From IMG/VR virus record IMGVR_UViG_2585427771_000003, positions 1 through 31,243 of that record: a DNA stretch of 31,243 nucleotides. One strand, 5' to 3'. The stretch is from a virus (taxonomy: Duplodnaviria; Heunggongvirae; Uroviricota; Caudoviricetes). Position numbers and translations under genes: made by a program. Position 1 is the stretch's first letter. The number at the start of each line of letters is the position of its first letter. The notes beneath the pieces were generated by a model that was not told where the DNA came from, searched no databases, and saw only the letters and a program-made list of their open reading frames with translations. Positions 5,767-30,020 of this stretch are shown in pieces.

Positions 5767-6720
5767 TTATTCGAATGGAAGATCTATTTGCCTTTGAGGA
5801 TTCAACTGTTTTTTTACATGCTCAATTTCGAATATGGTTTTTATGGCATCTCCGATCATATATTGAGTTACTTTTAAATCTACAAGTAACATATCACCTT
5901 TAGAAAAATTTAAGGTGTTGTTATCAATATCGCTGATGAATTTCTGGTCTTTTATTTCAGCCAAAAAGCTACTGGCACCATCAGAAAACCGCCACCGGCT
6001 TCCTTCATTGAAGGAAATATTTTTAATTTGAAGGGCTTTCTCTACTGTGTACTCTGAAATTATTGATTCTGCTGGTAGATTGACTTTGAAATAATGTGCT
6101 TCTTGCTTGTTGATCGTCATGAATGTCAAACCATCATCGACAGTAGAGGCAAAGCTGTCAATGCCTTCCTGCTCTAATGGCTTACTTATAACTTCTTGTA
6201 ATGAAGAGCGAAGTTTAATATTTTTATAAAGTTCAATAACGTTACTGTCGTAGATCTCGCTTTCGTCATCAACAAAGACTTCGATGTTGCTATCAGGCAA
6301 ATTGTGTAATTTTTTTATTTTCCTTGGACCTATCCATTTTATCAGTTGAATTAGGCCTTTGCATATTTTTTCTTTAGAACCAGGACAGAGTCCAATAAAA
6401 GCAATCAAATTCGCAGCGGCTGTTGCTGAATCGCCGGATAAAAAATCAACAGCCTGTTTGAACCAAGATGTAGATGAGGCAACCAGATCTATTCCAAATG
6501 AGCCAGCTTTAAATGATGCATTGACTTTTACAGAAACAACAGTCTTGTTTCCGTAGAGAGTTTTACCGGCTTCCTCTAATGCATCTGATAGTGATAGAAG
6601 GGCAGGAGCAAGGTCTCGCACGTTCATTTCATGCGTTTCCAGTGCCGGACCGTCGTATACTATCCTGAACTTCATATCATTGGTTTCCGAATTGTTGCCC
6701 GCATCCATTATGGCATTCAC
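5767..6720 (-). CDS. Unknown 313-317 aa protein in the rexAB position (candidate superinfection-exclusion or anti-phage defence gene)
   Basis: Long ORF directly downstream of cI on the same strand, separated by about 60 nt and closed by a terminator. The DNA is visibly AT-rich compared with the flanking lambda-like genes. Start is ambiguous: GTG at 6720, ATG at 6708 (preceded by AGGTG), or ATG at 6675. No transmembrane segment or recognisable catalytic motif, and no resemblance to RexA or RexB. Confidence 0.6.
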   Translation of the reverse strand: MNAIMDAGNNSETNDMKFRIVYDGPALETHEMNVRDLAPALLSLSDALEEAGKTLYGNKTVVSVKVNASFKAGSFGIDLVASSTSWFKQAVDFLSGDSATAAANLIAFIGLCPGSKEKICKGLIQLIKWIGPRKIKKLHNLPDSNIEVFVDDESEIYDSNVIELYKNIKLRSSLQEVISKPLEQEGIDSFASTVDDGLTFMTINKQEAHYFKVNLPAESIISEYTVEKALQIKNISFNEGSRWRFSDGASSFLAEIKDQKFISDIDNNTLNFSKGDMLLVDLKVTQYMIGDAIKTIFEIEHVKKQLNPQRQIDLPFE

Positions 6721-7806: not shown

Positions 7807-7875
7807 ATTTCCATTTCACGCTCTTTAACAATAAGCAATCAACTTAACAGTCAATTCAAACTAAAGGAGTCAATT

Positions 7876-8415
7876 ATGCAACCACTTACATACCAACAGA
7901 CTAGCGGATTTAGCCCGACTGCGGTGATAAATCGTTCTCAAACAAAACAAGCTCCAGGCCACGAAAAAATCCGTGATGCCGTCCGCGCCTGGTCGGCTGT
8001 AGATAATCAGGATGTCGTTGCCGCACTCATTGTGAATGAGTATCGGGAGCAGGGCGGCGGCACCATCGATTTCCCTGATGATGTCAGCCGTGCACGCCAG
8101 AAGCTGTTCCGCTTCCTCGATAACAAATTCGATTCTGAAAAATACCGAAATAACGTGCGTGAACTGACCCCGGCAATTCTGGCGGTACTACCGCTGGAAT
8201 ATCGCGGTTACCTAGTTGAGCAGGATAGCTTCATGGCTCGGCTGGCTGAAATGGAAAAGGAACTCAGTGAGGCAAAGCAGGCGGTCATTCTCAACGCACC
8301 ACGCCACCAGAAACTGAAGGAGATGAGTGAAGGCATTGTGTCGATGTTTCGAGTGGACCCGGATCTGGCTGGTCCACTGATGGCGATGGTCACCACCATG
8401 CTGGGGGCAATATGA
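7876..8415 (+). CDS. YdaT-like regulatory protein in the cII position (179 aa)
   Basis: AAGGAG Shine-Dalgarno upstream. Segments EYREQGGG and TPAILAVLPLEYR resemble what I recall of Rac YdaT (EYLRQGGG, IPAILAILPRELR). Sits between cro and O. Confidence 0.55.
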   Translation: MQPLTYQQTSGFSPTAVINRSQTKQAPGHEKIRDAVRAWSAVDNQDVVAALIVNEYREQGGGTIDFPDDVSRARQKLFRFLDNKFDSEKYRNNVRELTPAILAVLPLEYRGYLVEQDSFMARLAEMEKELSEAKQAVILNAPRHQKLKEMSEGIVSMFRVDPDLAGPLMAMVTTMLGAI

Positions 8416-8501
8416 CAGGTTCAGAAATGGCGAAAGCCGGTCTGCTGGAACAGAACCGACTTTCAGGTGCAAATCGTAACACACTCATTGCGGGAGGAAT
8501 T

Positions 8502-9431
8502 ATGGCAAACACTGCTGAGATATTCAATTTTCCAGTGCCGGATGCGGCACAAAAGGAGCCGCGCGTGGCAGATCTCGATGATGGTTATACGCGCATTGCA
8601 AATGAGTTGCTGGAAGCTGTGATGCTGGCCGGATTAACACAGCACCAGCTTCTGGTCTTTCTGGCTGTCATGCGCAAAACATATGGCTTTAATAAAAAAC
8701 TGGATTGGGTTAGCAACGAGCAACTTTCCGAATTAACCGGGATATTGCCGCACAAGTGTTCTGCTGCAAAAAGTGTTCTGGTAAAGCGTGGGATTTTTAT
8801 TCAGAGCGGGCGGAATACCGGCATTAATAATGTGGTCAGTGAATGGTCTACATTACCCGAATCAGGTAAGAAAAATAAAGTTTACCTGAAAGAGGTAAAT
8901 TTACCTGAATCAGGTAAAAAAAGTTTACCCAAATCAGGTAAAGGCGTTTACCCGAATCAGGTAAACACAAAAGACAAACTAACAAAAGACAATATAAAAC
9001 CTTTTTCGTCCGAGAATTCTGGCGAATCCTCTGACCAACCAGAAAACGATCTTCCTGTGGTGAAACCGGATGCTGCAATTCAGAGCGGCAGCAAGTGGGG
9101 GACAGCAGAAGACCTGACCGCCGCAGAGTGGATGTTTGACATGGTGAAGACCATCGCGCCATCAGCCAGAAAACCGAATTTTGCAGGGTGGGCTAACGAT
9201 ATCCGCCTGATGCGTGAACGTGACGGACGTAACCACCGCGACATGTGCGTGCTGTTCCGCTGGGCATGCCAGGACAACTTCTGGTCCGGTAACGTGCTAA
9301 GTCCGGCCAAACTCCGCGACAAGTGGACCCAACTCGAAATCAACCGTAACAAGCAACAGGCAGGCGTGACAGCTAGCAAACCAAAACTCGACCTGACAAA
9401 CACAGACTGGATTTACGGGGTGGATCTATGA
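8502..9431 (+). CDS. O: Replication initiator O (lambda O family)
   Basis: From the ATG at 8502 (GGAGG upstream): MANTAEIFNFPVP...RVADLDDGYTRIANELLEAVMLAGLTQHQLLVFLAVMRKTYGFNK matches the lambda O N-terminal domain, and the C-terminus WACQDNFWSGNVLSPAKLRDKWTQLEINRNKQQAGV matches the lambda O P-interaction region. The ORF is open from 8412, so the start is somewhat uncertain. Iterons lie inside the gene. Confidence 0.9.
   Translation: MANTAEIFNFPVPDAAQKEPRVADLDDGYTRIANELLEAVMLAGLTQHQLLVFLAVMRKTYGFNKKLDWVSNEQLSELTGILPHKCSAAKSVLVKRGIFIQSGRNTGINNVVSEWSTLPESGKKNKVYLKEVNLPESGKKSLPKSGKGVYPNQVNTKDKLTKDNIKPFSSENSGESSDQPENDLPVVKPDAAIQSGSKWGTAEDLTAAEWMFDMVKTIAPSARKPNFAGWANDIRLMRERDGRNHRDMCVLFRWACQDNFWSGNVLSPAKLRDKWTQLEINRNKQQAGVTASKPKLDLTNTDWIYGVDL
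8855..8965 (+). repeat. Origin of replication: five iterons followed by an AT-rich tract, inside O
   Basis: Five copies of an approximately 18-bp unit, TTTACC(T/C)GAATCAGGTAAA, each an internal inverted repeat (TACCTGA / TCAGGTA), at about 8855, 8881, 8900, 8924 and 8947. An AT-rich stretch follows at 8966-9005. Architecture is the same as ori-lambda. Confidence 0.85.
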
Positions 9432-10129
9432 AAAACATCGCCGCACAGATGATTAACTTTGACCGTGAGCAGATGCGCCGGATCGCCAACAACATGCCGG
9501 AACAGTACGACGAAAAGCCGCAGGTACAGCAGGTAGCGCAGATAATCAACGGTGTATTCAGCCAGTTACTGGCAACTTTCCCGGCGAGCCTGGCTAATCG
9601 TGACCAGAACGAACTGAACGAAATCCGCCGCCAGTGGGTTCTGGCTTTCCGGGAAAACGGGATCACCACGATGGAACAGGTGAGCGCCGGAATGCGTGTT
9701 GCCCGTCGGCAGAATAGACCATTTCTGCCATCACCCGGGCAGTTTGTTGCATGGTGCCGGGAAGAAGCATCCGTTACCGCCGGGCTGCCAAACGTCAGCG
9801 AGCTGGTTGATATGGTTTACGAGTATTGCCGGAAGCGTGGTCTGTATCCGGATGCAGAGTCTTATCCGTGGAAATCAAACGCGCACTACTGGCTGGTTAC
9901 CAACCTGTATCAGAACATGCGGGCCAATGCGTTGACTGACGCGGAATTACGGCGCAAGGCTGCCGATGAACTGTCCTGTATGACCGCGCGAATTAACCGT
10001 GGTGAGGCGATACCTGAACCAGTAAAACAACTTCCTGTCATGGGCGGTAGACCTCTAAATCGTGCACAGGCTCTGGCGAAGATCGCAGAAATCAAAGCTA
10101 AGTTTGGGCTGAAAGGAGCAATTGTATGA
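9428..10129 (+). CDS. P: Replication protein P (DnaB helicase loader, 233 aa)
   Basis: Translation MKNIAAQMINFDREQMRRIANNMPEQYDEKPQVQQVAQIINGVFSQLLATF... is near-identical to lambda P as remembered; start overlaps the O stop. Confidence 0.95.
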   Translation: MKNIAAQMINFDREQMRRIANNMPEQYDEKPQVQQVAQIINGVFSQLLATFPASLANRDQNELNEIRRQWVLAFRENGITTMEQVSAGMRVARRQNRPFLPSPGQFVAWCREEASVTAGLPNVSELVDMVYEYCRKRGLYPDAESYPWKSNAHYWLVTNLYQNMRANALTDAELRRKAADELSCMTARINRGEAIPEPVKQLPVMGGRPLNRAQALAKIAEIKAKFGLKGAIV

Positions 10130-10428
10130 CGGGCAAAGAGGCAATTATTCATTACTTGGGGACTCATAAGAACTTCTGTGCGCAGGACGTTGCCGCGGTA
10201 ACAGGTGCAACCGTAACCAGCATAAATCAGGCTGCGGCTAAAATGGCGCGGGCAGGAATCCTGGTCGTTGATGGTAAGGTCTGGCGAACGGTGTATTATC
10301 GGTTCGCTACCAGAGAAGAATGGGAAGGAAAGGTGAGCACGAATTTGATTTTTAAGGAGTGTCGCCAGAGTGCCGCGATGAAACGGGTATTGAGGGTATA
10401 TAAAAGAACATCAATGGGTACACAATGA
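10126..10428 (+). CDS. ren: Ren exclusion protein (100 aa)
   Basis: Translation MTGKEAIIHYLGTHKNFCAQDVAAVTGATVTSINQAAAKMARAGILVVDGKVWRTVYYRFATREE matches lambda Ren. Confidence 0.9.
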   Translation: MTGKEAIIHYLGTHKNFCAQDVAAVTGATVTSINQAAAKMARAGILVVDGKVWRTVYYRFATREEWEGKVSTNLIFKECRQSAAMKRVLRVYKRTSMGTQ

Positions 10429-10495
10429 TGAAACAGGTGAGTTGAGTTCAAACTGTAGTACAATTCTCTCCAGTTTGAACAGGAAAGAATATGCT

Positions 10496-10828
10496 ATGAA
10501 TCCTTATATTTATCTTGGTGGTGCAATACTTGCAGAGGTCATTGGTACAACCTTAATGAAGTTTTCAGAAGGTTTTACACGGTTATGGCCATCTGTTGGT
10601 ACAATTATTTGTTATTGTGCATCATTCTGGTTATTAGCTCAGACGCTGGCTTATATTCCTACAGGGATTGCTTATGCTATCTGGTCAGGAGTCGGTATTG
10701 TCCTGATTAGCTTACTATCATGGGGATTTTTCGGCCAACGGTTGGACCTGCCAGCCATTATAGGCATGATGTTGATTTGTGCCGGTGTGTTGGTTATTAA
10801 TTTATTGTCACGAAGCACACCACATTAA
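10496..10828 (+). CDS. emrE: SMR-family multidrug efflux transporter EmrE (110 aa)
   Basis: From the internal ATG at 10496: MNPYIYLGGAILAEVIGTTLMKFSEGFTRLWPSVGTIICYCASFWLLAQTLAYIPTGIAYAIWSGVGIVLISLLSWGFFGQRLDL..., matching E. coli EmrE, which is a known DLP12 prophage cargo gene. Confidence 0.93.
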   Translation: MNPYIYLGGAILAEVIGTTLMKFSEGFTRLWPSVGTIICYCASFWLLAQTLAYIPTGIAYAIWSGVGIVLISLLSWGFFGQRLDLPAIIGMMLICAGVLVINLLSRSTPH

Positions 10829-11083
10829 AAATAATTTGTTTTTAAACGACTAAAATATGGAGGCTCGTATATTTATATGGGCCTCGTTTTATGCTTTTTG
10901 TTAATGTCTTTAGTTTTTATTCATTCTTTTGTGCTTTCAAGATTATGGTGTAAGAAAATTGCAATGCGATTATTGTTGTATATTCAAAATAATGTGACCT
11001 TAATTGTCTTTTTAAATAAAAATTAAACAAAAATCATATCTCACCACTAAGGTTTATAAAAGCATACTTTAGCAGGTGTCACC

Positions 11084-12610
11084 ATGAAAAAAGCCATAGC
11101 ATATATGCGATTTTCATCACCAGGTCAGATGTCTGGTGATTCATTAAACCGCCAGAGAAGGCTTATTACTGAATGGCTAAAGGTAAATAGTGATTATTAC
11201 CTTGATACCGTAACGTATGAAGATTTGGGGTTAAGCGCATTCAATGGAAAGCATGCACAATCAGGAGCTTTTTCGGAATTTTTAGATGCTATAGAACATG
11301 GTTATATATTGCCAGGGACTACATTGTTAGTTGAAAGTCTGGACAGACTTTCAAGAGAAAAAGTCGGTGAAGCGATTGAGCGTCTGAAATTGATTTTGAA
11401 TCACGGTATTGATGTTATAACTCTTTGCGATAATACAGTCTATAATATTGACTCATTGAATGAGCCATATTCATTAATAAAAGCCATACTTATAGCACAA
11501 AGGGCAAATGAAGAAAGCGAGATAAAGTCAAGTCGGGTTAAATTATCATGGAAGAAAAAACGGCAGGATGCACTGGAGTCAGGCACGATTATGACGGCTT
11601 CTTGTCCGAGATGGCTCTCATTGGATGACAAAAGAACGGCTTTTGTTCCAGACCCCGACAGGGTGAAAACTATTGAGCTAATTTTTAAACTCAGGATGGA
11701 AAGGCGCTCATTGAATGCAATAGCCAAGTATTTAAATGATCATGCTGTAAAGAATTTCTCAGGAAAAGAAAGTGCATGGGGACCTTCTGTAATTGAAAAA
11801 TTATTAGCGAATAAAGCTCTGATAGGTATATGCGTACCTTCATATCGTGCAAGAGGGAAAGGGATAAGTGAAATCGCTGGCTATTATCCCAGAGTCATAT
11901 CAGATGATTTGTTTTACGCTGTACAGGAAATTCGGTTGGCACCTTTTGGTATTAGCAATAGTAGCAAGAATCCTATGCTAATAAATCTACTTCGAACAGT
12001 TATGAAGTGTGAGGCTTGTGGTAATACCATGATTGTTCATGCGGTATCTGGAAGTTTGCATGGCTATTATGTTTGTCCGATGAGAAGATTACATCGATGT
12101 GACAGACCATCAATAAAAAGAGATTTGGTTGATTATAATATCATTAATGAATTGCTTTTTAATTGTAGCAAAATTCAACCAGTTGAAAACAAGAAAGATG
12201 CTAATGAAACTTTAGAGTTAAAAATTATTGAGCTTCAGATGAAAATTAATAATTTAATCGTTGCATTGTCTGTCGCGCCTGAAGTTACCGCTATAGCAGA
12301 GAAAATAAGACTATTAGATAAGGAATTACGAAGGGCTTCGGTATCATTAAAAACTTTGAAGAGTAAAGGGGTGAGTTCACTTGGTGATTTTCATGCTATT
12401 GATTTAACCAGTAAAAATGGGCGAGAGCTATGTCGTACACTTGCCTATAAAATATTCGAAAAAATTATAATTAATACAGATAATAAAACCTGTGATATCT
12501 ATTTTATGAATGGCATTGTTTTTAAACACTATCCTTTAATGAAAGTAATATCCGCCCAGCAGGCGATAAGTACTCTTAAATATATGGTTGATGGTGAGAT
12601 TTATTTTTGA
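11084..12610 (+). CDS. ybcK: Large serine recombinase, YbcK-like (508 aa)
   Basis: N-terminal resolvase-type catalytic region with the serine in AYMRFSSPGQ, and a long C-terminal extension. Visibly AT-rich. Same position as ybcK in DLP12. Confidence 0.85.
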   Translation: MKKAIAYMRFSSPGQMSGDSLNRQRRLITEWLKVNSDYYLDTVTYEDLGLSAFNGKHAQSGAFSEFLDAIEHGYILPGTTLLVESLDRLSREKVGEAIERLKLILNHGIDVITLCDNTVYNIDSLNEPYSLIKAILIAQRANEESEIKSSRVKLSWKKKRQDALESGTIMTASCPRWLSLDDKRTAFVPDPDRVKTIELIFKLRMERRSLNAIAKYLNDHAVKNFSGKESAWGPSVIEKLLANKALIGICVPSYRARGKGISEIAGYYPRVISDDLFYAVQEIRLAPFGISNSSKNPMLINLLRTVMKCEACGNTMIVHAVSGSLHGYYVCPMRRLHRCDRPSIKRDLVDYNIINELLFNCSKIQPVENKKDANETLELKIIELQMKINNLIVALSVAPEVTAIAEKIRLLDKELRRASVSLKTLKSKGVSSLGDFHAIDLTSKNGRELCRTLAYKIFEKIIINTDNKTCDIYFMNGIVFKHYPLMKVISAQQAISTLKYMVDGEIYF

Positions 12611-12933
12611 GTAATAATCACTTTTTCAACCGTGCTATGGTATGAAAGTAAAGTGACTAATATGATATTAACTATCTTGAACGAAGCGCCCTGAGCTATA
12701 GTTTTACTATAGGCACTGCCACTGGATGTTGGCATTCTTGCTCTAGTAGCTCAACAATACCCAATCACAAAACAATTCACTGATAACAAACTTTGTGCAC
12801 GTGCTTGGTTATGGCGAACAGGTGATGTTAACCTCTTGCCTGAATGCCACTCCACTTCATTAAGTATCTGAGCACCGAGAGGCTGGTCACGCCCCCATTA
12901 AAAATAATTTCTTTTGAATCGAGTGAAATAGGT

Positions 12934-12960
12934 TAGCCCGCATAAGTGCGGGCTGCTTTT
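12934..12960. terminator. Hairpin terminator between the convergent ybcK and esterase genes
   Basis: Stem AGCCCGCA / TGCGGGCT with loop TAAG, followed on the + strand by GCTTTTT. The T-run abuts the esterase stop codon. Likely terminates ybcK transcription and may act in both directions. Confidence 0.5.
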
Positions 12961-14003
12961 TACAGGTCAGCGTTTGTTTTTTGTTGTTGGGTAGCGGTTT
13001 TTATGGGGGTTCCCAGGTTTTTAGTAAACCACTCAACAACTCTGTTTATAATAATTGGCTGATACCATGTATTATCGCCATGCTCAGCCCCTTCTACCAG
13101 AACGTACTCAGCGTTATCGCCGTTCTTCTTCAACATCCTGAATAGTTTGGCGCTTTGCTCAGGTGAAACCAGAGTGTCTTTGCTACCATGCATAATAAGA
13201 AATGGGGGTTTTACTCCTTTCATATGTCCGATTGGACTGGCGTTTAGCGCTTTTTCTTTTGACGCTGTTATGGGGGCTCCCGCAAAACTTCTGAATGCAG
13301 GGCCATTGATCATTAAGGCTTCGGTTACGGCAGGAGATCGATGAACCTCCTGCACTGATTCAGGGAACCCCTCGCCAATATTCAACAAGTCAGAAATCCC
13401 ATAAAGTGTGGCAACTGCCTGAACATCTGCTGATTGCTGAAGAAAGTCACCTTTATTAAAGGTTTTGTCACCATTTGTAGTTCCCATCATCTGGGCAAGC
13501 CATCCACCGGCAGAGTCACCCAGAACTCCGATTCTTTGAGGATCAATCCCATAATCGCTGGCATGTTCTCTCAAGTAACGTATTGCAGCTTTCCCATCCT
13601 CAACTGGTGCTGGAAATGTATCAGGAATTGTTCTGTATTCTACAGCGGCCACAACAAAACCAGCTTCAGCCAGAGCCATTCTCATTTCAATAAATTTGTC
13701 ATGTTCAGAAGACATGAATCCGCCGCCGGGATAATAAATAATGGCTGGTCTTAAATCATTTGTTCGCGGGACAAGAACTGACATGTGAAGCTGTCTGACA
13801 GAACGAGTTCCTTTTATCTGGGAATAAACAACATCACCAATGAGATCGACCTGGTTTCTGGTGGGTGAAACACTAATGATATCTGCACCCGGGGTGTAAC
13901 CAGGAAGATTAGTCTGGACAGGTGTTGCACAACTCCCGACCGACATGGCCATTGACATACCATACAATAGTGTTGCAGATGATAATATCTTGTTAATTTT
14001 CAT
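12960..14003 (-). CDS. Secreted alpha/beta-hydrolase esterase or lipase, probable lipoprotein (347 aa)
   Basis: N-terminal signal peptide with a lipobox-like MSVGSC; GDSAGG nucleophile elbow (G-x-S-x-G) and a downstream HGSKD segment typical of the alpha/beta-hydrolase fold. Lies where DLP12 of E. coli K-12 carries ybcL and ybcM. Confidence 0.7.
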   Translation of the reverse strand: MKINKILSSATLLYGMSMAMSVGSCATPVQTNLPGYTPGADIISVSPTRNQVDLIGDVVYSQIKGTRSVRQLHMSVLVPRTNDLRPAIIYYPGGGFMSSEHDKFIEMRMALAEAGFVVAAVEYRTIPDTFPAPVEDGKAAIRYLREHASDYGIDPQRIGVLGDSAGGWLAQMMGTTNGDKTFNKGDFLQQSADVQAVATLYGISDLLNIGEGFPESVQEVHRSPAVTEALMINGPAFRSFAGAPITASKEKALNASPIGHMKGVKPPFLIMHGSKDTLVSPEQSAKLFRMLKKNGDNAEYVLVEGAEHGDNTWYQPIIINRVVEWFTKNLGTPIKTATQQQKTNADL

Positions 14004-14352
14004 GTTTTACATGCCTTGACTTATCGGATGAAATTCTCTTACTGAATTTAACGGCAGTTTAATAGCAGTACAACTCGTGGTAGCTAGGGAAATATCCCAG
14101 TCGTGGTTAAGGTTGTACTTGACGGCTATTATTTCAACAATGCTTAAAGTGAGAGCTTAAGGTTATGCGTATGTTTTACAGTCCGAGTAGATTCTGACCA
14201 ATAGCTTCTTTGTATAATTCTGTCAGAAATAAATCTTGGCTTGCATGAAGTTTGAGACCTTATCTTGTTTGATTATGAATAATCAATTCGCCATAATTGT
14301 ATCACCGGAGCCTGAACAACTCCTGTGACTTCTGCGCTAAACGGGGACGTTT

Positions 14353-14454
14353 ATGCGCACATACAATCCAACCTATCTTCTCCATTCACAGATGCAGAAA
14401 TGCACCTGCGATTTTTTGCATCCAGCGTTTGGCCTCTGCGGAGGTGAATCGTGA
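14353..14454 (+). CDS. ylcH: Small ORF, YlcH-like (33 aa)
   Basis: ATG at 14353 to TGA at 14452-14454, translation [33 protein letters not shown]; overlaps the GTG start of ybcN. The match to YlcH is from memory of DLP12 gene order only. Confidence 0.35.
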
Positions 14455-14906
14455 ACCTCCCACAAGATGGCATCAAATTGCATCGCGGCAACTTCACCGC
14501 TTTCGGCCAGCAGATCCAGCCTTATCTGGAGGACGGAAAATGCTTTCGCATGGTGCTTAAACCGTGGCGTGAGAAACGCAGTCTTTCCCAGAATGCACTC
14601 AGCCATATGTGGTACAGCGAAATCAGTGAATACCTCATCAGCAGGGGGAAATCGTTCGCTACCGCAGCATGGGTAAAAGATGCTCTCAAACACACATACC
14701 TCGGTTATGAAACCAAGGACCTGGTTGATGTCGTAACCGGCGAAATCACTACTATCCAGTCGTTACGCCATACCTCCGATCTTGATACCGGAGAGATGTA
14801 TGTCTTCCTGTGTAAGGTTGAAGCCTGGGCGATGAATATTGGCTGCCACCTGACTATTCCGCAGCGCTGCGAGTTCCAGCTGCTGCGCGACAAGCAGGAG
14901 GCGTAA
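14451..14906 (+). CDS. ybcN: YbcN-like DNA base-flipping protein (151 aa)
   Basis: GTG start with GGAGGTG Shine-Dalgarno at 14440-14446; translation [61 protein letters not shown]... matches DLP12 YbcN as remembered. Confidence 0.8.
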
Positions 14907-15076
14907 TGGCTACACCGCTTATTCGTATCATGAACGGACACATCTACAAAGTACCAAATCGTCGTAAGCGTAAACCTGAGCTGAAGCCATCCGAAATACC
15001 AACACTGCTCGGGTATACCGCCAGCCTGGTTGATAAAAAATGGTTGCGACTGGCAGCAAGGAGGAATCATGGCTGA
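14906..15076 (+). CDS. ninE: NinE-like protein (56 aa)
   Basis: ATG overlaps the ybcN stop (TAATG). Translation [56 protein letters not shown], a basic small protein resembling lambda NinE. Too short to appear in the ORF track. Confidence 0.7.
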   Translation: MATPLIRIMNGHIYKVPNRRKRKPELKPSEIPTLLGYTASLVDKKWLRLAARRNHG

Positions 15077-15359
15077 TTTGAGAAAAGCAGCGCGTGGTCG
15101 GGAATGCCAGGTAAGAATCCCTGGCGTATGTAATGGCAATCCTGAAACGTCAGTACTGGCACATATCCGGCTGGCTGGATTGTGCGGTACCGGTATCAAA
15201 CCGCCAGACCTGATTGCCACCATTGCATGTTCTGCCTGCCACGACGAAATCGACCGTCGCACGCATTTTGTTGACGCTGGATATGCAAAAGAATGCGCGC
15301 TGGAAGGTATGGCGAGAACACAGGTTATCTGGTTGAAAGAGGGGGTTATTGAGGCGTGA
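15069..15359 (+). CDS. ybcO: YbcO-like protein (DUF1364, putative nuclease, 96 aa)
   Basis: From the ATG at 15069: [64 protein letters not shown], cysteine-rich and matching DLP12 YbcO; sits immediately upstream of rusA. Confidence 0.8.
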
Positions 15360-15718
15360 ATACCTACAGCATCACATTACCTTGGCCTCCGAGCAATAAT
15401 CGCTATTACCGCCATAATCGTGGGCGCACGCACGTCAGCGCAGAGGGGCAGGCATACTGCGATAACGTCGCCCGAATCATTAAAAACGCAATGCTGGATA
15501 TCGGCTTGGCTATGCCAGTGAAAATCCGTATTGAGTGCCACATGCCGGATCGCCGTCGCCGTGACCTGGATAATCTGCAAAAAGCCGCTTTTGACGCACT
15601 CACCAAAGCAGGTTTCTGGCTGGATGATATTCAGGTCGTTGATTACCGTGTTGTGAAGATGCCCGTTACCAAAGGTGGGAAGCTGGAGCTGACCATCACC
15701 GAACTGGGAGATGAATGA
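15356..15718 (+). CDS. rusA: Holliday-junction resolvase RusA (120 aa)
   Basis: Translation [91 protein letters not shown] matches E. coli RusA. Confidence 0.95.
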
Positions 15719-15855
15719 TGTTTGAGTCTTATATGGCAGAGCGTCTTCGCCGCCGCTGGGTGCGCCTGCGCTTATATCGTTTTCCTGGTTCTGTTTTGAC
15801 CGATTACCGAATACTGAAGAATTACGCCAAAACCCTGACAGGAGCAGGAGTATGA
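15715..15855 (+). CDS. ylcG: YlcG-like small protein (46 aa)
   Basis: ATGATG start overlapping the rusA stop; translation [46 protein letters not shown]. Too short for the ORF track; identity is from memory. Confidence 0.5.
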
Positions 15856-15940
15856 AGTCAGAGATAACAATCAACTAATACTGTTTTGTTGATTTTTGCT
15901 TGTAATTGGCGTTCTGGTCTGATTTTTGTGGAGTAAGTTG

Positions 15941-16324
15941 ATGCGTGATATTCAGATGGTTCTTGAGCGTTGGGGAGCGTGGGCGGCTAATAATCATGAA
16001 GATGTGACCTGGTCGTCCGTTGCCGCCGGTTTTAAGGGATTAATTCCTTCAAAAGTAAAATCTCGCCCGCAATGTTGTGACGATGACGCGATGATCATTT
16101 GCGGGTGCATGGCCCGTCTGAAAAAGAACAACAGCGATTTACACGATTTATTAGTAGATTATTATGTATGTGGTATGACATTCATGTCACTGGCAAGTAA
16201 GCATTGCTGCTCGGATGGTTATATCGGGAAAAGGTTACAGAAGGCTGAGGGCATAATTGAAGGGATGTTAATGGCATTAGATATCCGGTTAGATATGGAT
16301 ATCGTTGCTAATAATTCTAATTGA
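15941..16324 (+). CDS. quuD: Late-gene antiterminator Q (QuuD / phage 21-82 type, 127 aa)
   Basis: ATG at 15941 with GGAG upstream; translation [60 protein letters not shown]..., a cysteine-rich Q-type antiterminator, in the expected place before the lysis genes. Confidence 0.8.
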
Positions 16325-16344
16325 TATGCAATTGTTTACTAAAA

Positions 16345-16375
16345 GTTATTAAAAATGGGGCGTGGAAACGCCCCC
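16345..16375 (-). terminator. Candidate terminator for the porin gene (- strand)
   Basis: Hairpin GGGGCG-TGGAAA-CGCCCC at 16357-16375; on the - strand it is followed by ATTTTTAATAACTTT. Confidence 0.45.
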
Positions 16376-16460
16376 AAAATAAAGGGTAATATATAACAGA
16401 AGGTTTATATAGTAAGAAGCAAGGTAGTGCTTCTAAAGGAAGTGGCTTGAGGGCTCCACT

Positions 16461-16501
16461 TATATGTTGCGGAGGCAAAGCCTCCCGCAACATATCTTTT
16501 T
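16461..16501 (+). terminator. Rho-independent terminator downstream of Q (candidate tR')
   Basis: Long perfect inverted repeat TATATGTTGCGGAGGC-AAAG-CCTCCCGCAACATA followed by TCTTTTT, about 140-180 nt after the Q stop, where pR'/tR' and the short late leader RNA are expected. Confidence 0.65.
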
Positions 16502-16512
16502 CGTAAGTCAGA

Positions 16513-17595
16513 TTAGAACTGATAAACCAGACCTACAGCGACGATGTCGTCGGTATCAATACCAGCTGTTTTGGTAAACTTACTATCGTCAATTAAGTTG
16601 ATTTTGTAATCAACAAAAGTGGACATGTTTTTATTAAAGTAGTAAGTAGCACCGACATCGACATACTTGACTAAGTCTCGGTCACCATGAACACCAAGGT
16701 CTTTACCTTTTGACTGAAGGTAAGCAACAGATGGTCGCAGACCGAAGTCAAACTGATATTGTGCTACTGCTTCAAAGTTTTGTGCTTTGTTTGCAATATG
16801 GTTATTACCAAAAACGGTCATATTCTGAGTTTCAGAATATGTGGTAGCCAGATAGATATTGTTCGCATCATATTTCAGGCCTGCAGCCCATACTTCCGCA
16901 TTTTTGCCGGAGGCATTGAATTTGCTCTTACCATAGGCGACCTGACCGTCAGTGCGATCTGATTTAGCATAGGTTGCACCCACGCCGAATCCTTCATACT
17001 CATAAGTAGTGGAGAAACCGAAACCATCACCATTGGCTTCAGTTACGTCAGTGCGGTCATTTTTACCCTGATACTGAGCAGCAAAGTTCAGGCCATCGAC
17101 CAGACCAAAGAAGTCGTTGTTACGATAAGTTGCAACACCAGTAGTGCGACCAGTCATGAACACATCTGTTTGGGTCCAGGTATCACCACCGAATTCTGGC
17201 AGGACGTCAGTCCACGCACCGATGTCGTATGCTACACCGTAGTTACGGCCGTAATCGATTGAGCCGTAATCACCAAATTTCAGGCCTGCAAATGCAAGAC
17301 GGGTTTTGTCTTTGGAAGAACCTTGAGATTCAGCACGGTTGCCTTTGAATTCATATTCCCACTGACCGAAACCAGTCAGTTGATCGTTGATTTGGGTTTC
17401 ACCTTTGAAGCCAAGACGGGCATAAGTAGTATCACCATCATCTGCATCATTAGAGGAAAAGTAGTGCTTGGCATTAACTTTCCCGTATAGATCCAGCTTG
17501 TTACTGTCTTTATTATAAATTTCAGCTGCCTGAGCAGACATCGCCATCAGTACTGATGCAGCTACAGCAGAAATTGCCACTGTTAATTTTTTCAT
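16513..17595 (-). CDS. nmpC: OmpC-family outer-membrane porin, NmpC/Lc-like, apparently intact (360 aa)
   Basis: Signal peptide [23 protein letters not shown] followed by [19 protein letters not shown], with aromatic/glycine-rich beta-strand character and a C-terminal ...VGLVYQF typical of general porins. On the - strand between Q and the lysis genes, as in DLP12 and PA-2. Confidence 0.85.
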
Positions 17596-18022
17596 TGTAC
17601 GCCCTTTTTTTTGAACTATTATTAAAAAATGATGTCACTGCGCGATAAATATTCATCTAATCAATGCGATTATTTCAAGATGTAAGTTTTAGTTTCTCAT
17701 TTAATTTGTGAAGTAGATCTCTATTTTTATCTGAACCTTTTCTATCTAATCCTATTCATGGCTCTTGTTTGAACGAAAATAAATCTATTAGCTAATTTAT
17801 ATTAATGGCACTTATTTATAAGCGCTCTATAATTCTTTAGCTTAATTTAAACAAACTAAAAATAACATCGGAAATTATTCATTGGTTATTTGTTGAAGTT
17901 TTCTTATGTATTTGTGGTGGTGTTTTGAACACTCGGTGGCATTCTCACAAATATCATTTAGTAGTTTACGTACGTAAAAAATTGGTTATGCTGTTAAGAG
18001 TGGTTACTTCGTCACACAGCTT

Positions 18023-18055
18023 AAACCCGCCGTCGAGCGGGTTTTTCCATTTTTT
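18023..18055 (+). terminator. Hairpin terminator upstream of the lysis cassette
   Basis: Stem AAACCCGC / GCGGGTTT with loop CGTCGA, followed by TTCCATTTTTT. Confidence 0.55.
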
Positions 18056-18184
18056 GAGTCTCGATATTAGCTGATAACCCAATACCTGAGTTATTCACTG
18101 ACTCCAAATCTGTTACGTTTCTGCCTTTATTGCGATACGTAGTATCCCCTTAATTTACACCCGCTTTGTCTGCGAGGTGGGGTT

Positions 18185-18400
18185 ATGAAATCCATGGATA
18201 AGTTAACAACGGGTGTCGCCTATGGCACCTCAGCAGGTAGTGCCGGTTACTGGTTTTTACAGCTGCTCGATAAAGTCACGCCCTCACAGTGGGCAGCAAT
18301 AGGTGTGCTGGGTAGCCTGGTATTTGGCCTGCTGACGTACCTGACAAACCTTTATTTCAAGATTAAAGAAGATAAGCGCAAGGCTGCGAGAGGTGAATAA
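18185..18400 (+). CDS. essD: Pinholin, S21-like (71 aa)
   Basis: Translation [71 protein letters not shown] matches the phage 21 holin. Met1 and Met4 give the dual-start motif typical of holin/antiholin pairs. Confidence 0.9.
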
Positions 18401-18897
18401 TGTCGCCATCATTACGCAAGGCTATTGCTGCTGCTATTGGTGGTGGGGCTGTTGCCATAGCGTCTGTGCTCATCACTGGTCCGAGTGGTGACGATGGCCT
18501 GGAAGGTGTCAGCTACATACCATACAAAGATATCGTTGGCGTATGGACTGTATGTCACGGACACACCGGAAAAGACATCATGCTCGGTAAAACGTATACC
18601 GAAGCAGAATGCAAAGCCCTCCTGAATAAAGACCTTGCCACTGTCGCCAGACAAATTAACCCGTACATCACAGTCGATATACCGGAAACAACGCGCGGCG
18701 CTCTTTACTCATTCGTTTACAACGTGGGCGCTGGCAATTTCAGAACATCGACGCTTCTTCGCAAAATAAACCAGGGCGATATCAAAGGCGCATGTGATCA
18801 GCTACGGCGCTGGACATACGCTGGCGGTAAGCAATGGAAAGGGCTGATGACTCGCCGTGAGATTGAGCGTGAAGTCTGTTTGTGGGGGCAACAATGA
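18400..18897 (+). CDS. rrrD: SAR endolysin (lysozyme, R21-like, 165 aa)
   Basis: N-terminal glycine/alanine-rich signal-anchor-release segment ([20 protein letters not shown]) followed by a lysozyme domain; matches the phage 21 endolysin. Start overlaps the holin stop. Confidence 0.9.
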
Positions 18898-18985
18898 GCA
18901 TGATTTGCTTTTTCATGGCAGCGTTGCTCGCATTCAATGGCAACGATGCGTGGCCGTGGTTTCTGGCTGTTGGAGTGTTGATGTC

Positions 18986-19478: not shown

Positions 19479-19772
19479 TTATTGTGAGCAATAGACACGC
19501 GCTTCCAGCGGAGTATAAATGCCTAAAGTAATAAAACCGAGCAATCCATTTACGAATGTTTGCTGGGTTTCTGTTTTAACAACATTTTCTGCGCCGCCAC
19601 AAATTTTGGCTGCATCAACAGTTTTCTCCTGTCCAATTCCCGAAACGAAGAAATGATGGGTGATGGTTTCCTTTGGTGTTACTGCTGTCGGTTTGTTTCC
19701 AACAGTAAACGTCTGTTGAGCACATCCTGTAATAAGCATTGCCAGAGCGGCAGAAAACAACATTTTTTTCAT
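19479..19772 (-). CDS. borD: Bor serum-resistance lipoprotein (97 aa)
   Basis: From the ATG at 19770-19772: MKKMLFSAALAMLITGCAQQTFTVGNKPTAVTPKETITHHFFVSGIGQEKTVDAAKICGG... with lipobox ITGC; matches lambda Bor. Confidence 0.9.
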   Translation of the reverse strand: MKKMLFSAALAMLITGCAQQTFTVGNKPTAVTPKETITHHFFVSGIGQEKTVDAAKICGGAENVVKTETQQTFVNGLLGFITLGIYTPLEARVYCSQ

Positions 19773-27620: not shown

Positions 27621-30020
27621 ATGGCAGCAGTAAAAATCTCAGGTGTGCTGAAAGATGGTGCGGGAAAACCAATACAGAACTGCACTATTCAACTGAAGGC
27701 AAAGCGTAACAGCACCACGGTACTGGTGAACACGGTGGCCTCTGAAAATCCGGATGAAGCCGGGCGTTACAGCATGGATGTTGAGTATGGCCAGTACAGC
27801 GTTATCCTGCTGGTTGAAGGTTTTCCGCCTTCACATGCCGGGACCATCACCGTGTATGAAGATTCTAAGCCGGGGACGCTGAATGATTTTCTCGGTGCCA
27901 TGACGGAAGATGATGTCATGCCGGAGGCATTGCGTCGTTTTGAGGAAATGGTGGAAGAAGCGGCACGCAACGCTGAAGCCGCCTCTCAGAGCGCAGCGGC
28001 GGCAAAGAAATCCGAAACAGCAGCGGCATCATCGAAGAACGCGGCGAAAACCTCAGAAACGAACGCAGCTAACAGCGCACAGGCGGCAGCGGCCTCACAG
28101 ACTGCATCGGCAAACTCCGCGACTGCAGCCAAAAAATCAGAAACCAACGCGAAAAACAGTGAGACAGCCGCAAAGACGAGCGAAACCAACGCGAAGTCCA
28201 GCCAGACGGCAGCGAAAACCAGCGAAACGAATGCCAAAGCCAGTGAAACTGCGGCGAAAAGCAGTCAGGATGCAGCAGCTGAAAGCGAGAGTGCGGCGGC
28301 CGGTTCTGCGACTTCAGCAGCCGGATCAGCAACTGCTGCGGCTAACAGCCAGAAAGCTGCGAAGACGAGTGAAACTAACGCAAAGTCCAGCCAGACAGCA
28401 GCGAAGACCAGCGAAACGAATGCCAAAGCCAGCGAAACTGCGGCGAAAAGTAGTCAGGCTGCAGCAGCCGAAAGCGAGAGTGCTGCAGCTGGTTCTGCAA
28501 GTGCGGCGGCTGCTTCTGCCACTGCATCAGCTAACAGTCAAAAAGCAGCAAAAACCAGTGAAACCAACGCAAAGGCGAGCGAAACAGCGGCTGCGAACTC
28601 AGCGAAAGCATCGGCAGCAAGCCAGACGGCAGCTAAAGCAAGCGAAGATGCAGCCAGAGAGTACGCAAGCCAGGCTGCGGAGCCGTATAAATATGTCTTA
28701 CAGCCGTTACCTGAGGTGTGGATACCGTTTAACGATTCACTGGATATGATTACCGGGTTTGCTCCTGGATATAAGAGCATCACAGTTGGTGACGATGTTA
28801 TTGCATTGCCGTCTGAAAAGGTTGTTTCATTTACCAGGGCGTCAACTGCAACGTATATAGATAAGTCTGGGTGTTTTGCTGAATCAGCGATAAATGAACC
28901 ACGTTTTGAAAAAGATGGTCTGCTCATTGAAGGTCAGAGAACGAATACTTTTTCTTATACGAATACACCAGTATCGTGGAACTATGACACTGCTAACTTA
29001 ACTATTACCACGGGAGTTGATGAGTATGGTTTCAGTTATGGTTTGTTTGGCGTTAAAGAAACATCCACAACTGAAAGGGCGACATTAATTTCTACTGGAT
29101 ATACCAGGGTTATTTCAGTTTCGGCAAATGAATCAGTTACTTTATCCTGCAGAGTTAAAAAAGTAAGTGGGGATGGTATTATCACGTTGCGTCCAAGAAT
29201 ATCATATGTTAACGACGATGGCTCAAGTAACACACTGACCGCTGGCGCATATATTGATTGCGAGACTGGCGATATGTTGAGTTATTCTGGAGGTGAGGCG
29301 GCAACTTATAACATATTCAGAGAGTCTAATGGATGGATTCGTGTTGAGTTTACCTACAAATCACCAGAAGCAAAAAATATGTATGGGCGTTTTGAGTTTG
29401 GAGCACATCAACGATCAATCAAGTCTGGCGATAAATTAATGTTAACAACCCCTCAATTCGAAAAGGGACTAAACGCGTCATCTTTTATCATCACAACAGA
29501 GGTCGGTGCCACGAGAGCAAGTGACCAGGTAATCATACCTATACCTTTCAATTGGGCAACTCCACCAGTTAGTGTTCTCATGGAAGTTAATGTTAATTGG
29601 GATTCTGAAATGCCTAATTTAGAAGGCTCTGCGCGTTTGCTTAATATCTCAATTACAGGGGCGACGACTGAAGTTTCTGATGAAAGTTATATGTATTTTG
29701 GTTTTACCACTCGTGGTAAAAGGCTAATTATCACCAATGGCAAAGGAACAAAAACAGAATATAAAGCATATGGGAATAGAGAGAAAAGGAAATTTGTTAC
29801 TGGCTTTAAGTTTACAGAAGATAAACAGTTGCAGGTTGTTGTTGATGGAATTTTAGGTGGCAGCTCCCCGTCTCTGCATACATTGCAACGTTATACTGCC
29901 GGTAATATTAATATCGGTGGACAATCATCCAGTGGCAACAGACACCTGTTCGGTCATGTGAAAAATTTACGCATTTGGCATAAAGAATTAACTGAGGCAC
30001 AAATGGGGGAGTCAATCTAA
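27621..30020 (+). CDS. stf: Side tail fibre protein, mosaic: lambda Stf-like N-terminus, repetitive Ala/Ser/Thr-rich shaft, divergent C-terminal domain (799 aa from ATG 27621)
   Basis: N-terminus (M)AAVKISGVLKDGAGKPIQNCTIQLKAKRNSTTVLVNTVASENPDEAGRYSMDVEYGQYSVIL matches lambda Stf. The middle is a KTSETNAK/ASETAAKSSQ-type repeat region. The last roughly 400 aa are visibly AT-rich and unlike lambda Stf, ending ...GNRHLFGHVKNLRIWHKELTEAQMGESI, a lectin-like (concanavalin/LamG-type) ending by impression only. GGAG lies 5 nt before the ATG at 27621; the ORF is open from a GTG at 27615. Confidence 0.8.
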   Translation: MAAVKISGVLKDGAGKPIQNCTIQLKAKRNSTTVLVNTVASENPDEAGRYSMDVEYGQYSVILLVEGFPPSHAGTITVYEDSKPGTLNDFLGAMTEDDVMPEALRRFEEMVEEAARNAEAASQSAAAAKKSETAAASSKNAAKTSETNAANSAQAAAASQTASANSATAAKKSETNAKNSETAAKTSETNAKSSQTAAKTSETNAKASETAAKSSQDAAAESESAAAGSATSAAGSATAAANSQKAAKTSETNAKSSQTAAKTSETNAKASETAAKSSQAAAAESESAAAGSASAAAASATASANSQKAAKTSETNAKASETAAANSAKASAASQTAAKASEDAAREYASQAAEPYKYVLQPLPEVWIPFNDSLDMITGFAPGYKSITVGDDVIALPSEKVVSFTRASTATYIDKSGCFAESAINEPRFEKDGLLIEGQRTNTFSYTNTPVSWNYDTANLTITTGVDEYGFSYGLFGVKETSTTERATLISTGYTRVISVSANESVTLSCRVKKVSGDGIITLRPRISYVNDDGSSNTLTAGAYIDCETGDMLSYSGGEAATYNIFRESNGWIRVEFTYKSPEAKNMYGRFEFGAHQRSIKSGDKLMLTTPQFEKGLNASSFIITTEVGATRASDQVIIPIPFNWATPPVSVLMEVNVNWDSEMPNLEGSARLLNISITGATTEVSDESYMYFGFTTRGKRLIITNGKGTKTEYKAYGNREKRKFVTGFKFTEDKQLQVVVDGILGGSSPSLHTLQRYTAGNINIGGQSSSGNRHLFGHVKNLRIWHKELTEAQMGESI
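28188..28565 (+). repeat. Tandem direct repeat, two copies of 189 bp, within the stf shaft region
   Basis: The 63-aa unit NAKSSQTAAKTSETNAKASETAAKSSQ(D/A)AAAESESAAAGSA...ANSQKAAKTSET occurs twice in tandem (second copy begins near 28377), with near-identical DNA. More degenerate heptad-like repeats flank it. Confidence 0.8.

Follow-up and report, generated by a model that had tools for sequence, protein, structure and literature searches.

The window analyzed here, a stretch of 31,243 nucleotides covering IMG/VR virus record IMGVR_UViG_2585427771_000003 (Caudoviricetes), carries in its nin region a minus-strand gene for a 347-residue α/β-hydrolase, at the place where the DLP12 prophage of Escherichia coli K-12 holds ybcL and ybcM. 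On the basis of sequence and comparative evidence, this is probably a phage cargo gene of mosaic origin that entered a nin-region hotspot without the participation of the neighboring serine recombinase YbcK, and that encodes an exported lipoprotein esterase acting on hydroxycinnamoyl and/or acetyl esters. The slot is a cargo hotspot in the nin region of DLP12-like lambdoid phages, in which modules assort independently. The swap is ordinary lambdoid mosaicism, a shuffling of phage cargo that is already annotated in hundreds of genomes and several phages.

An open reading frame (ORF) map combined with domain searches gave the gene order O, P, ren, emrE, a ylcJ-like gene, ybcK, the esterase gene (minus strand), a ylcH-like gene, ybcN, ninE, ybcO and rusA. 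The ORFs described in an initial annotation made from the sequence alone (ren, emrE, ybcK and the 347-residue minus-strand ORF with its MSVGSC and GDSAGG motifs) were all found in place. That annotation had placed ybcL and ybcM at this position in K-12 and suggested a cargo swap spanning emrE, ybcK and the esterase gene. The placement was right, as the DLP12 order in MG1655 is emrE-ylcJ-ybcK-ybcL-ybcM-ylcH-ybcN, with no esterase gene at the slot. The swap is also real but smaller than proposed. BLASTN against the K-12 locus showed continuous homology over 10215-12649 (96.8% identity) resuming at 14268 (95.2%), with the two emrE genes 98.8% identical at the nucleotide level, and the exchange is confined to 12650-14267 when K-12 is the reference (to 12887-14267 against the allele of E. 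coli O104:H4). The emrE and ybcK genes are shared backbone of this phage group, common with K-12. The larger block does correspond to another boundary: in about 140 phages, including lambda, 434, 21 and 933W, homology stops at ~10401, within the 3' end of ren, and therefore all of 10402-14267 is extra relative to canonical lambda, in agreement with the block outlined initially.

The right boundary of the exchange is a fixed one. The K-12 and O104:H4 alleles leave the window and both rejoin it at the same junction, 14267/14268, and the esterase-bearing loci of phage 4A7, sequence type 131 (ST131) and isolate F467 are homologous to the window without a break across it; the ylcH-like-ybcN segment is backbone common to every allele examined. 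On the left, the segment 12650-12886 is missing in K-12, contains in-frame stops and by alignment runs on as a pseudogene in O104:H4. This segment matches genes or pseudogenes named 'P22AR C-terminal domain-containing protein' in other prophages; in the one locus that was looked at, the annotation is that of a pseudogene.

The slot was found in five arrangements. The first, ybcK-ybcL-ybcM, occurs in K-12 and phage PhiR34_1, and the second, ybcK-esterase, in the window and phage 4A7, where the gene order was checked directly and is the same (98.4% identity over window positions 7875-18900). In the third, from ST131, a 1,421-residue inverse autotransporter abuts the esterase gene, ren, emrE and ybcK are absent, and homology to the window begins at 12956. 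In ST131 strain 2017_APHA (locus L004, 2703-6968), this intimin/invasin-like autotransporter gene ends 36 bp from the esterase stop codon. The fourth arrangement, from O104:H4, has emrE and ybcK in truncated form together with a P22AR-C pseudogene and a gene for a 169-residue hypothetical protein, and in the fifth, from isolate F467, emrE and the esterase gene converge directly. Across 5,426 complete E. coli genomes, the ybcL-ybcM segment was found in 3,210, the esterase segment at 80% coverage or more in 604 (~11%; some match to its 3' part in up to 680) and the window-type arrangement in 172. The lineages with the esterase include ST131, LF82 and avian pathogenic E. coli (APEC), that is, extraintestinal pathogenic E. 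coli (ExPEC). The gene is also present in the sequenced phages Lambda_4C10, D2, 1W, 3W, Perceval and PhiR47_2, and is known as 'alpha/beta hydrolase' in RefSeq, 'esterase' in the 4A7 record and 'esterase' in PHROGs (phrog_3341, 7e-129). A secreted esterase, considered unusual prophage cargo in the initial annotation, is therefore anything but rare, with this frequency, at least seven distinct sequenced phages and a PHROG of its own.

The GC content of 10429-14352 is 38.8%, against 50-51% in the O-P-ren and ybcN-rusA flanks, so that the block is AT-rich as described initially, though layered: the emrE-ybcK module has 35.5% GC (~0.29-0.33 at third codon positions, GC3) and the esterase cassette 43.0%, with a GC3 of 0.37 against ~0.6 in the flanks. 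The esterase cassette thus has a composition distinct from the backbone and occupies a slot that is differently filled among the five arrangements, both being properties of a cargo gene.

The 347-residue protein is predicted to be a serine esterase of the BD-FAE family with an intact catalytic triad. Pfam searches matched BD-FAE (PF20434) with 151.4 bits (cut-off 26.8; 3e-44) and Abhydrolase_3 (PF07859) with 81.5 bits (cut-off 25). In an alignment of 24 homologues, Ser164 of the GDSAGG motif, Asp276, His308 and the oxyanion loop PGGGF at residues 92-96 are invariant, and the GxSxG nucleophile motif is intact. A sequence search of solved structures retrieved the goat-rumen esterase 6NKF (1e-36), the Bacteroides GH43-CE protein 6MLY, and 6XYC and 6TKX, taken as BD-FAE structures from their deposited names. 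An AlphaFold2 model (mean predicted local distance difference test score 76.8, predicted template modeling score 0.79) was matched by Foldseek to 6NKF, 6XYC/6TKX and 6MLY with probability 1.0 and in the same ranking, so that the homology and structure search suggested initially places the protein among the BD-FAE or fold-3 esterases by both Pfam and Foldseek. The earlier description of an exported serine esterase with a lipobox likewise holds: a PROSITE PS51257-type regular expression matches MKINKILSSATLLYGMSMAMSVGSC, with Cys25, Ala at +2 and two lysines within the first seven residues, and the lipobox cysteine is also present in the E. coli alleles and in the homologues of plasmid pSCU-105-1 (FSTGC), P0002 (SAGC) and P0005 (STGC), although it is not family-wide. 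Neither the ORF nor the lipobox or triad is disrupted in the alleles of ST131, 4A7 and the window, which differ mostly at synonymous positions; the ratio of nonsynonymous to synonymous substitution rates is 0.13-0.45, calculated on few differences. These values are consistent with a gene kept functional by selection.

The relatives of the esterase give the best indication of its substrate. On chromosomes or plasmids, homologues with 62-79% identity are found in Dickeya, Pectobacterium, Pantoea, Kosakonia, Enterobacter, Klebsiella, Kluyvera, Rahnella and rhizobia, and they concentrate in plant-associated Enterobacterales and in rhizobia. In pSCU-105-1 (75% identity), P0005 (74%) and P0002 (79%), a PF05870 phenolic acid decarboxylase gene lies 13-33 bp upstream of the esterase gene. 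A divergent LysR regulator accompanies the pSCU-105-1 and P0005 operons, and none was called on the short P0002 contig. The pairing suggests a two-step route in which a hydroxycinnamoyl ester is cleaved to the free acid, which is then converted to the vinyl phenol. A homologue from Dickeya aquatica (P0080) carries the source name 'Ferulate esterase' and is 62% identical in global alignment (65% in the local BLASTP alignment); it adjoins a paralogue linked to a LysR regulator and 47% identical to the E. coli protein. The genome paper of this strain lists the ferulate esterases FaeD and FaeT, FaeD is described as a feruloyl esterase secreted by the type II secretion system (PMC9007343), and for BD-FAE both feruloyl and acetyl-xylan esterase activities are described (PMC8165983). 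Because three of its nearest relatives follow phenolic acid decarboxylase genes and the Dickeya homologue is named a ferulate esterase, our best guess for the E. coli protein is a periplasm-facing hydroxycinnamoyl (feruloyl-type) or acetyl esterase. The phage copy shares with the decarboxylase operons the ORF only (~13006-14013), and no remnant of a phenolic acid decarboxylase gene was detected upstream of it, where homology to the operons stops at ~14013. Given this ORF-only homology and the other contexts in which relatives occur, the substrate is assigned with moderate strength.

Two of these other contexts were seen in some detail. P0003 (79% identity), on a metagenome contig (L014, 5001-6113), lies near a gene for a serine protease autotransporter of Enterobacteriaceae (SPATE) type (Peptidase_S6) and one for a PerC-family regulator, in virulence-island-like surroundings. 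In Enterobacter bugandensis (L016 and L017, 5001-5957), a 73% homologue is situated between LysR, amidohydrolase, NmrA and HxlR genes on one side and a lambdoid DinI-DUF1367-RusA-Q-lysis block on the other, and a record named 'phage PHB10' (L005) contains the same chromosomal genes as this border, a pattern that suggests either a capture site at a prophage edge or a record with host DNA.

We propose that 12887-14267 is a moron, a single esterase gene that runs against early-right transcription and has a terminator-like hairpin at its 3' end, in the ybcL-ybcM slot of K-12. The gene would have been captured as a bare ORF from an enterobacterial lineage in whose nearest members the esterase follows a phenolic acid decarboxylase, with a divergent LysR gene where the contig is long enough, and would have arrived by mosaic recombination between phages, either illegitimate or by short homology, and not via YbcK. 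For the lysogen, we infer expression of the gene, presumably from a promoter in 14004-14267, followed by Sec export, lipidation at Cys25 and Lol sorting to the periplasmic face of the outer membrane, as the alanine at +2 would predict. There, the Ser164-Asp276-His308 triad would hydrolyze small esters entering through porins, most likely plant-derived or dietary ones of hydroxycinnamoyl (feruloyl, chlorogenate-type) and/or acetyl type. A candidate extended -10 element, TGATACAAT, is located on the minus strand at ~14296-14304, ~290 nt upstream of the esterase gene, and the hairpin at 12934-12955 abuts the esterase stop codon but has its T-run on the plus strand.

Several observations weigh against parts of this proposal. 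The best solved relative, 6NKF, is deposited as lipase Lip_vut4, and all matches to NCBIfam esterase models scored far under their cut-offs, so that no specific activity was assigned from them. The lipobox cysteine is missing in P0004 and in all more distant homologues, which have ordinary signal peptides; with the cysteine limited to the closest relatives, lipidation at Cys25 appears plausible but lineage-specific. On the minus strand upstream of the esterase gene, the best match to a sigma-70 promoter reached 8 of 12 positions and none reached 9 of 12. The decarboxylase linkage was seen in three examined contexts only, and the copies of Pantoea, Dickeya zeae, D. dianthicola, Klebsiella oxytoca and Enterobacter, like P0003, occur in other contexts. 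Finally, orthology of the E. coli esterase to the characterized FaeD or FaeT is only a possibility, either D. aquatica paralogue being a candidate for each of the two.

Some of the same evidence can be read in favor of other functions. One of these is the removal of acetyl groups from bacterial or host glycans (O-acetylated O-antigen, capsule, peptidoglycan or sialic acids), which would contribute to lysogenic conversion, the exclusion of superinfecting phages or foraging on mucus, in the manner of the NanS-p esterases of Shiga toxin phages. Deacetylation is also an activity of BD-FAE enzymes (PMC8165983), the weak NCBIfam matches include acetyl esterase, pectin acetylesterase and acetylxylan esterase, the protein is predicted to reside in the envelope, its gene lies on the opposite strand as is often the case for lysogenic-conversion genes, and it is kept in ExPEC lineages including ST131, LF82 and APEC. 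However, the nearest relatives belong to phenolic acid decarboxylase operons and plant-associated bacteria, no glycan acetyltransferase or O-antigen genes are adjacent, Pfam gave no SGNH or NanS-type domain, and PADLOC matched none of the esterase, YbcK and EmrE, which makes a glycan target unlikely. We consider it quite improbable that the enzyme is a lipase or a virulence-type hydrolase with host lipids or membranes as its target. The deposited name of 6NKF, the SPATE and PerC neighbors of P0003, and the presence of the gene in ExPEC and adherent-invasive E. coli (AIEC) strains with iss and sitABCD would fit such an activity, but short-chain carboxylesterases typically have such a hormone-sensitive-lipase-like fold with GDSAGG, the family is distributed among plant-associated bacteria, and the decarboxylase operon context points elsewhere.

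Among the repeats of the block, the only meaningful pair is a 52-nt direct repeat (77% identity) with a perfect 15-nt core, CATTAAAAATAATTT, whose copies at 10820-10871 and 12893-12944 bracket ylcJ-ybcK and leave the esterase outside. Copy 1 spans the emrE stop codon and terminator, copy 2 forms the left end of the esterase cassette, and a hairpin with a T-run follows both copies, with a different stem in each. Copy 2 is present only where the esterase cassette joins emrE or ybcK and is absent in K-12, PhiR34_1, O104:H4 and ST131. In isolate F467, the 2,073 bp that separate the two copies, with ylcJ, ybcK and the P22AR remnant, are missing, and the junction falls within the 15-nt core (locus L025, 3998-4049). 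The F467 arrangement was also considered as an ancestral allele; its emrE is not a diverged one, being 99.1% identical to the window emrE, and the comparison is therefore not discriminating. A short-homology deletion, descent from an emrE-esterase parent phage and YbcK-mediated excision all fit the F467 arrangement; excision by YbcK is disfavored because the right end of the excised unit would fall within a pseudogene that extends further in O104:H4 and the repeats look like diverged terminator alleles.

The same repeats could make the 2,073-bp ylcJ-ybcK-P22AR' segment an element mobilized by YbcK at the 3' end of emrE, with copy 1 as attL, copy 2 as attR, F467 as the empty site or excision product, and the esterase outside. 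The loss in F467 is exactly between the repeats with its junction inside the identical core, and Ccr serine recombinases integrate SCCmec at rlmH in a comparable way, with direct repeats at a gene 3' end. Nevertheless, such an element is improbable, as the other two routes would leave an identical junction, only copy 1 is found in K-12 and PhiR34_1, the right end is a break inside the P22AR-C pseudogene, the repeats are homologous terminator modules (77% over ~50 nt) rather than typical att sites, and F467-like genomes are few (~2/174).

The initial annotation went further and suggested ybcK as the remnant of an element that delivered the whole block, including the esterase, as would suit an intact large serine recombinase within an AT-rich block that is extra relative to lambda; this we regard as highly improbable, because ybcK and the esterase assort independently (ybcK with ybcL-ybcM in K-12 and PhiR34_1, the esterase without ybcK in ST131 and F467), their modules differ in GC and GC3, ybcK is intact and conserved in sequenced phages, its relatives occupy internal, non-integrase positions in other prophages, and no repeats beyond chance bracket 10402-14267. 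The search for att-like or inverted repeats around the block or the esterase, as called for initially, returned only pairs of 12-24 nt at chance level (e.g. I8, 12597-12610/14223-14236). Mosaic recombination between phages is therefore preferred over delivery by YbcK.

YbcK itself corresponds to the earlier description of a large serine recombinase with its serine in RFSSPGQ: the domains Resolvase (PF00239), Recombinase (PF07508) and Zn_ribbon_recom (PF13408) all score above cut-off, the protein matches phrog_95, and the motif YMRFSSPGQ is present. Its amino acid identity is 98-99% in phages 4C10, 3W, PhiR34_1 and PhiR70_1 (99.4% in 4C10 and 3W). In other Enterobacterales, relatives at 42-59% identity sit within P2/Mu-like and lambdoid prophages at internal or cargo-type positions, and their neighbors in Atlantibacter, Yersinia and Pantoea (L026, L027 and L029) are tail-fiber assembly genes or an autotransporter gene, or the relative lies between the replication genes and Q. 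Behind the Pantoea relative, in a lambdoid nin region, comes a weak KilA-N-domain gene, which hints loosely at an older association between the recombinase and an antirepressor-like gene. In the literature, we found nothing on this prophage esterase or on a recombinase function for ybcK, and the phage function of YbcK-family recombinases appears to be unstudied.

The features of the locus are collected in Table 1. EmrE, proposed earlier to be a small multidrug resistance (SMR) efflux pump, passes the corresponding NCBIfam model.

Table 1. Features of the ren-ybcN interval, in window coordinates
Feature	Position	Strand	Evidence or remark
ren	10126-10428	+	phrog_142 Ren-like, 1e-41
emrE, SMR efflux transporter	10496-10828	+	NCBIfam SMR_efflux_EmrE, 240.6 bits (cut-off 226)
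Repeat copy 1	10820-10885	+	emrE stop codon, 15-nt core CATTAAAAATAATTT and hairpin
Intrinsic-terminator-like hairpin of repeat copy 1	10860-10885		
ylcJ-like small ORF, 49 residues	10877-11026	+	RefSeq annotation of identical genome; Pfam YlcJ, 1.7e-28
ybcK, large serine recombinase, 508 residues	11084-12610	+	N-terminus MKKAIAYMRFSSPGQ
P22AR C-terminal-domain (antirepressor-like) gene remnant	12650-12886	+	non-coding
Repeat copy 2, left end of esterase cassette	12893-12957	+	hairpin 12934-12955
BD-FAE-family serine esterase, 347 residues	12960-14003	-	predicted lipoprotein
AT-rich stretch upstream of esterase	14004-14267	-	264 bp, 37.5% GC
Right mosaic junction	14267/14268		upstream of ylcH
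ylcH-like ORF	14353-14454	+	
ybcN	14451-14906	+	phrog_72 NinB/Orf

Over 10000-15000, the window has the same sequence as E. coli MS1494 and MS1737 (100% identity) and matches LF82, NRG857c and others at 98.5% identity or more. In MS1494, the prophage has icd at one end and sitABCD at the other, carries iss, lom and a porin gene, and lacks head genes. The window prophage is a defective DLP12-like lambdoid prophage at icd, and not DLP12 at argU, because the identical genome MS1494 has it at icd beside sitABCD. An intact OmpC/NmpC-type porin gene, whose K-12 DLP12 counterpart is disrupted by IS5, is located at 16513-17595 on the minus strand, and an iss/bor serum-survival lipoprotein gene at ~19479-19772; both are further lysogenic-conversion cargo of this prophage. 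In the immunity region, between the kil/N side and a cI-like S24 repressor gene, a 313-residue ORF of ~36% GC (5767-6708, minus strand) has no Pfam domain and matches the PADLOC candidate defense family PDC-S42 (E = 3e-86), and is likely a prophage-borne defense gene. At 27750-28750, AT skew rises to +0.60 at ~55% GC, in a segment overlapping the minus-strand permease genes sitC and sitD of sitABCD, probably because of T-rich membrane-protein coding on the other strand.

Structurally, the exchange is routine, being one more allele at the lambdoid nin cargo hotspot that is already annotated in RefSeq and in phage records, and the slot serves as a compact example of cargo modules (emrE, ybcK, ybcL-ybcM, esterase and inverse autotransporter) exchanged at fixed junctions. 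Its modest value is the lead it gives on function, namely an esterase that is common, apparently selected and phage-transferable in ExPEC/ST131 prophages and that derives from decarboxylase-esterase operons. According to Couteau et al. 2001, as cited in PMC10340781, three human-gut E. coli strains hydrolyzed chlorogenic acid, and only some human colonic E. coli isolates do so. A possible but doubtful extension of our proposal is that the esterase is an active, outer-membrane-anchored hydroxycinnamoyl (chlorogenate or feruloyl) esterase that gives the ~11% of E. coli with the gene (including ST131 and other ExPEC/AIEC) a strain-specific, phage-transferable capacity to free caffeic or ferulic acid from plant esters in the diet. 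If this were true, the esterase would be a candidate gene for strain-variable chlorogenic acid hydrolysis in E. coli. Plant-ester hydrolysis by gut E. coli strains is directly testable, with 4A7 and PhiR34_1 as near-isogenic donors of the two alleles.

Among known systems, one counterpart is the ybcL-ybcM cargo of DLP12, which occupies the same slot between ybcK and ylcH-ybcN and shares the right junction at 14268, but consists of other genes on the opposite strand in a prophage at argU instead of icd. Among lambdoid morons such as bor/iss and lom, the window prophage also carries iss and lom together with a porin gene. The NanS-p O-acetyl-sialate esterases of Shiga toxin (Stx) prophages are prophage-borne esterases that act as metabolic cargo in E. 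coli, and they provide a precedent of this kind, although they belong to the unrelated SGNH fold family, of which the present protein has no domain. As an enzyme, the protein resembles BD-FAE (PF20434; 6TKX and 6XYC) by its strong Pfam match and a TM-score of 0.71-0.73 normalized to the target, but identity is only ~26%, and the BD-FAE enzymes come from polysaccharide-utilization loci of Bacteroidota, whereas here a single lipoprotein gene lies in an E. coli prophage. Both D. aquatica paralogues, compared with Dickeya FaeD/FaeT (CE10; PMC9007343, PMC10319131, bioRxiv 10.1101/568105), have signal peptides like the E. coli protein; FaeD is exported by the type II system, whereas the E. coli protein has a lipobox. 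The nearest non-phage relatives are the decarboxylase-esterase operons, such as that of the E. coli plasmid pSCU-105-1, at 74-79% identity and in several cases with the lipobox cysteine, from which the prophage copy differs in having neither the decarboxylase nor the LysR regulator.

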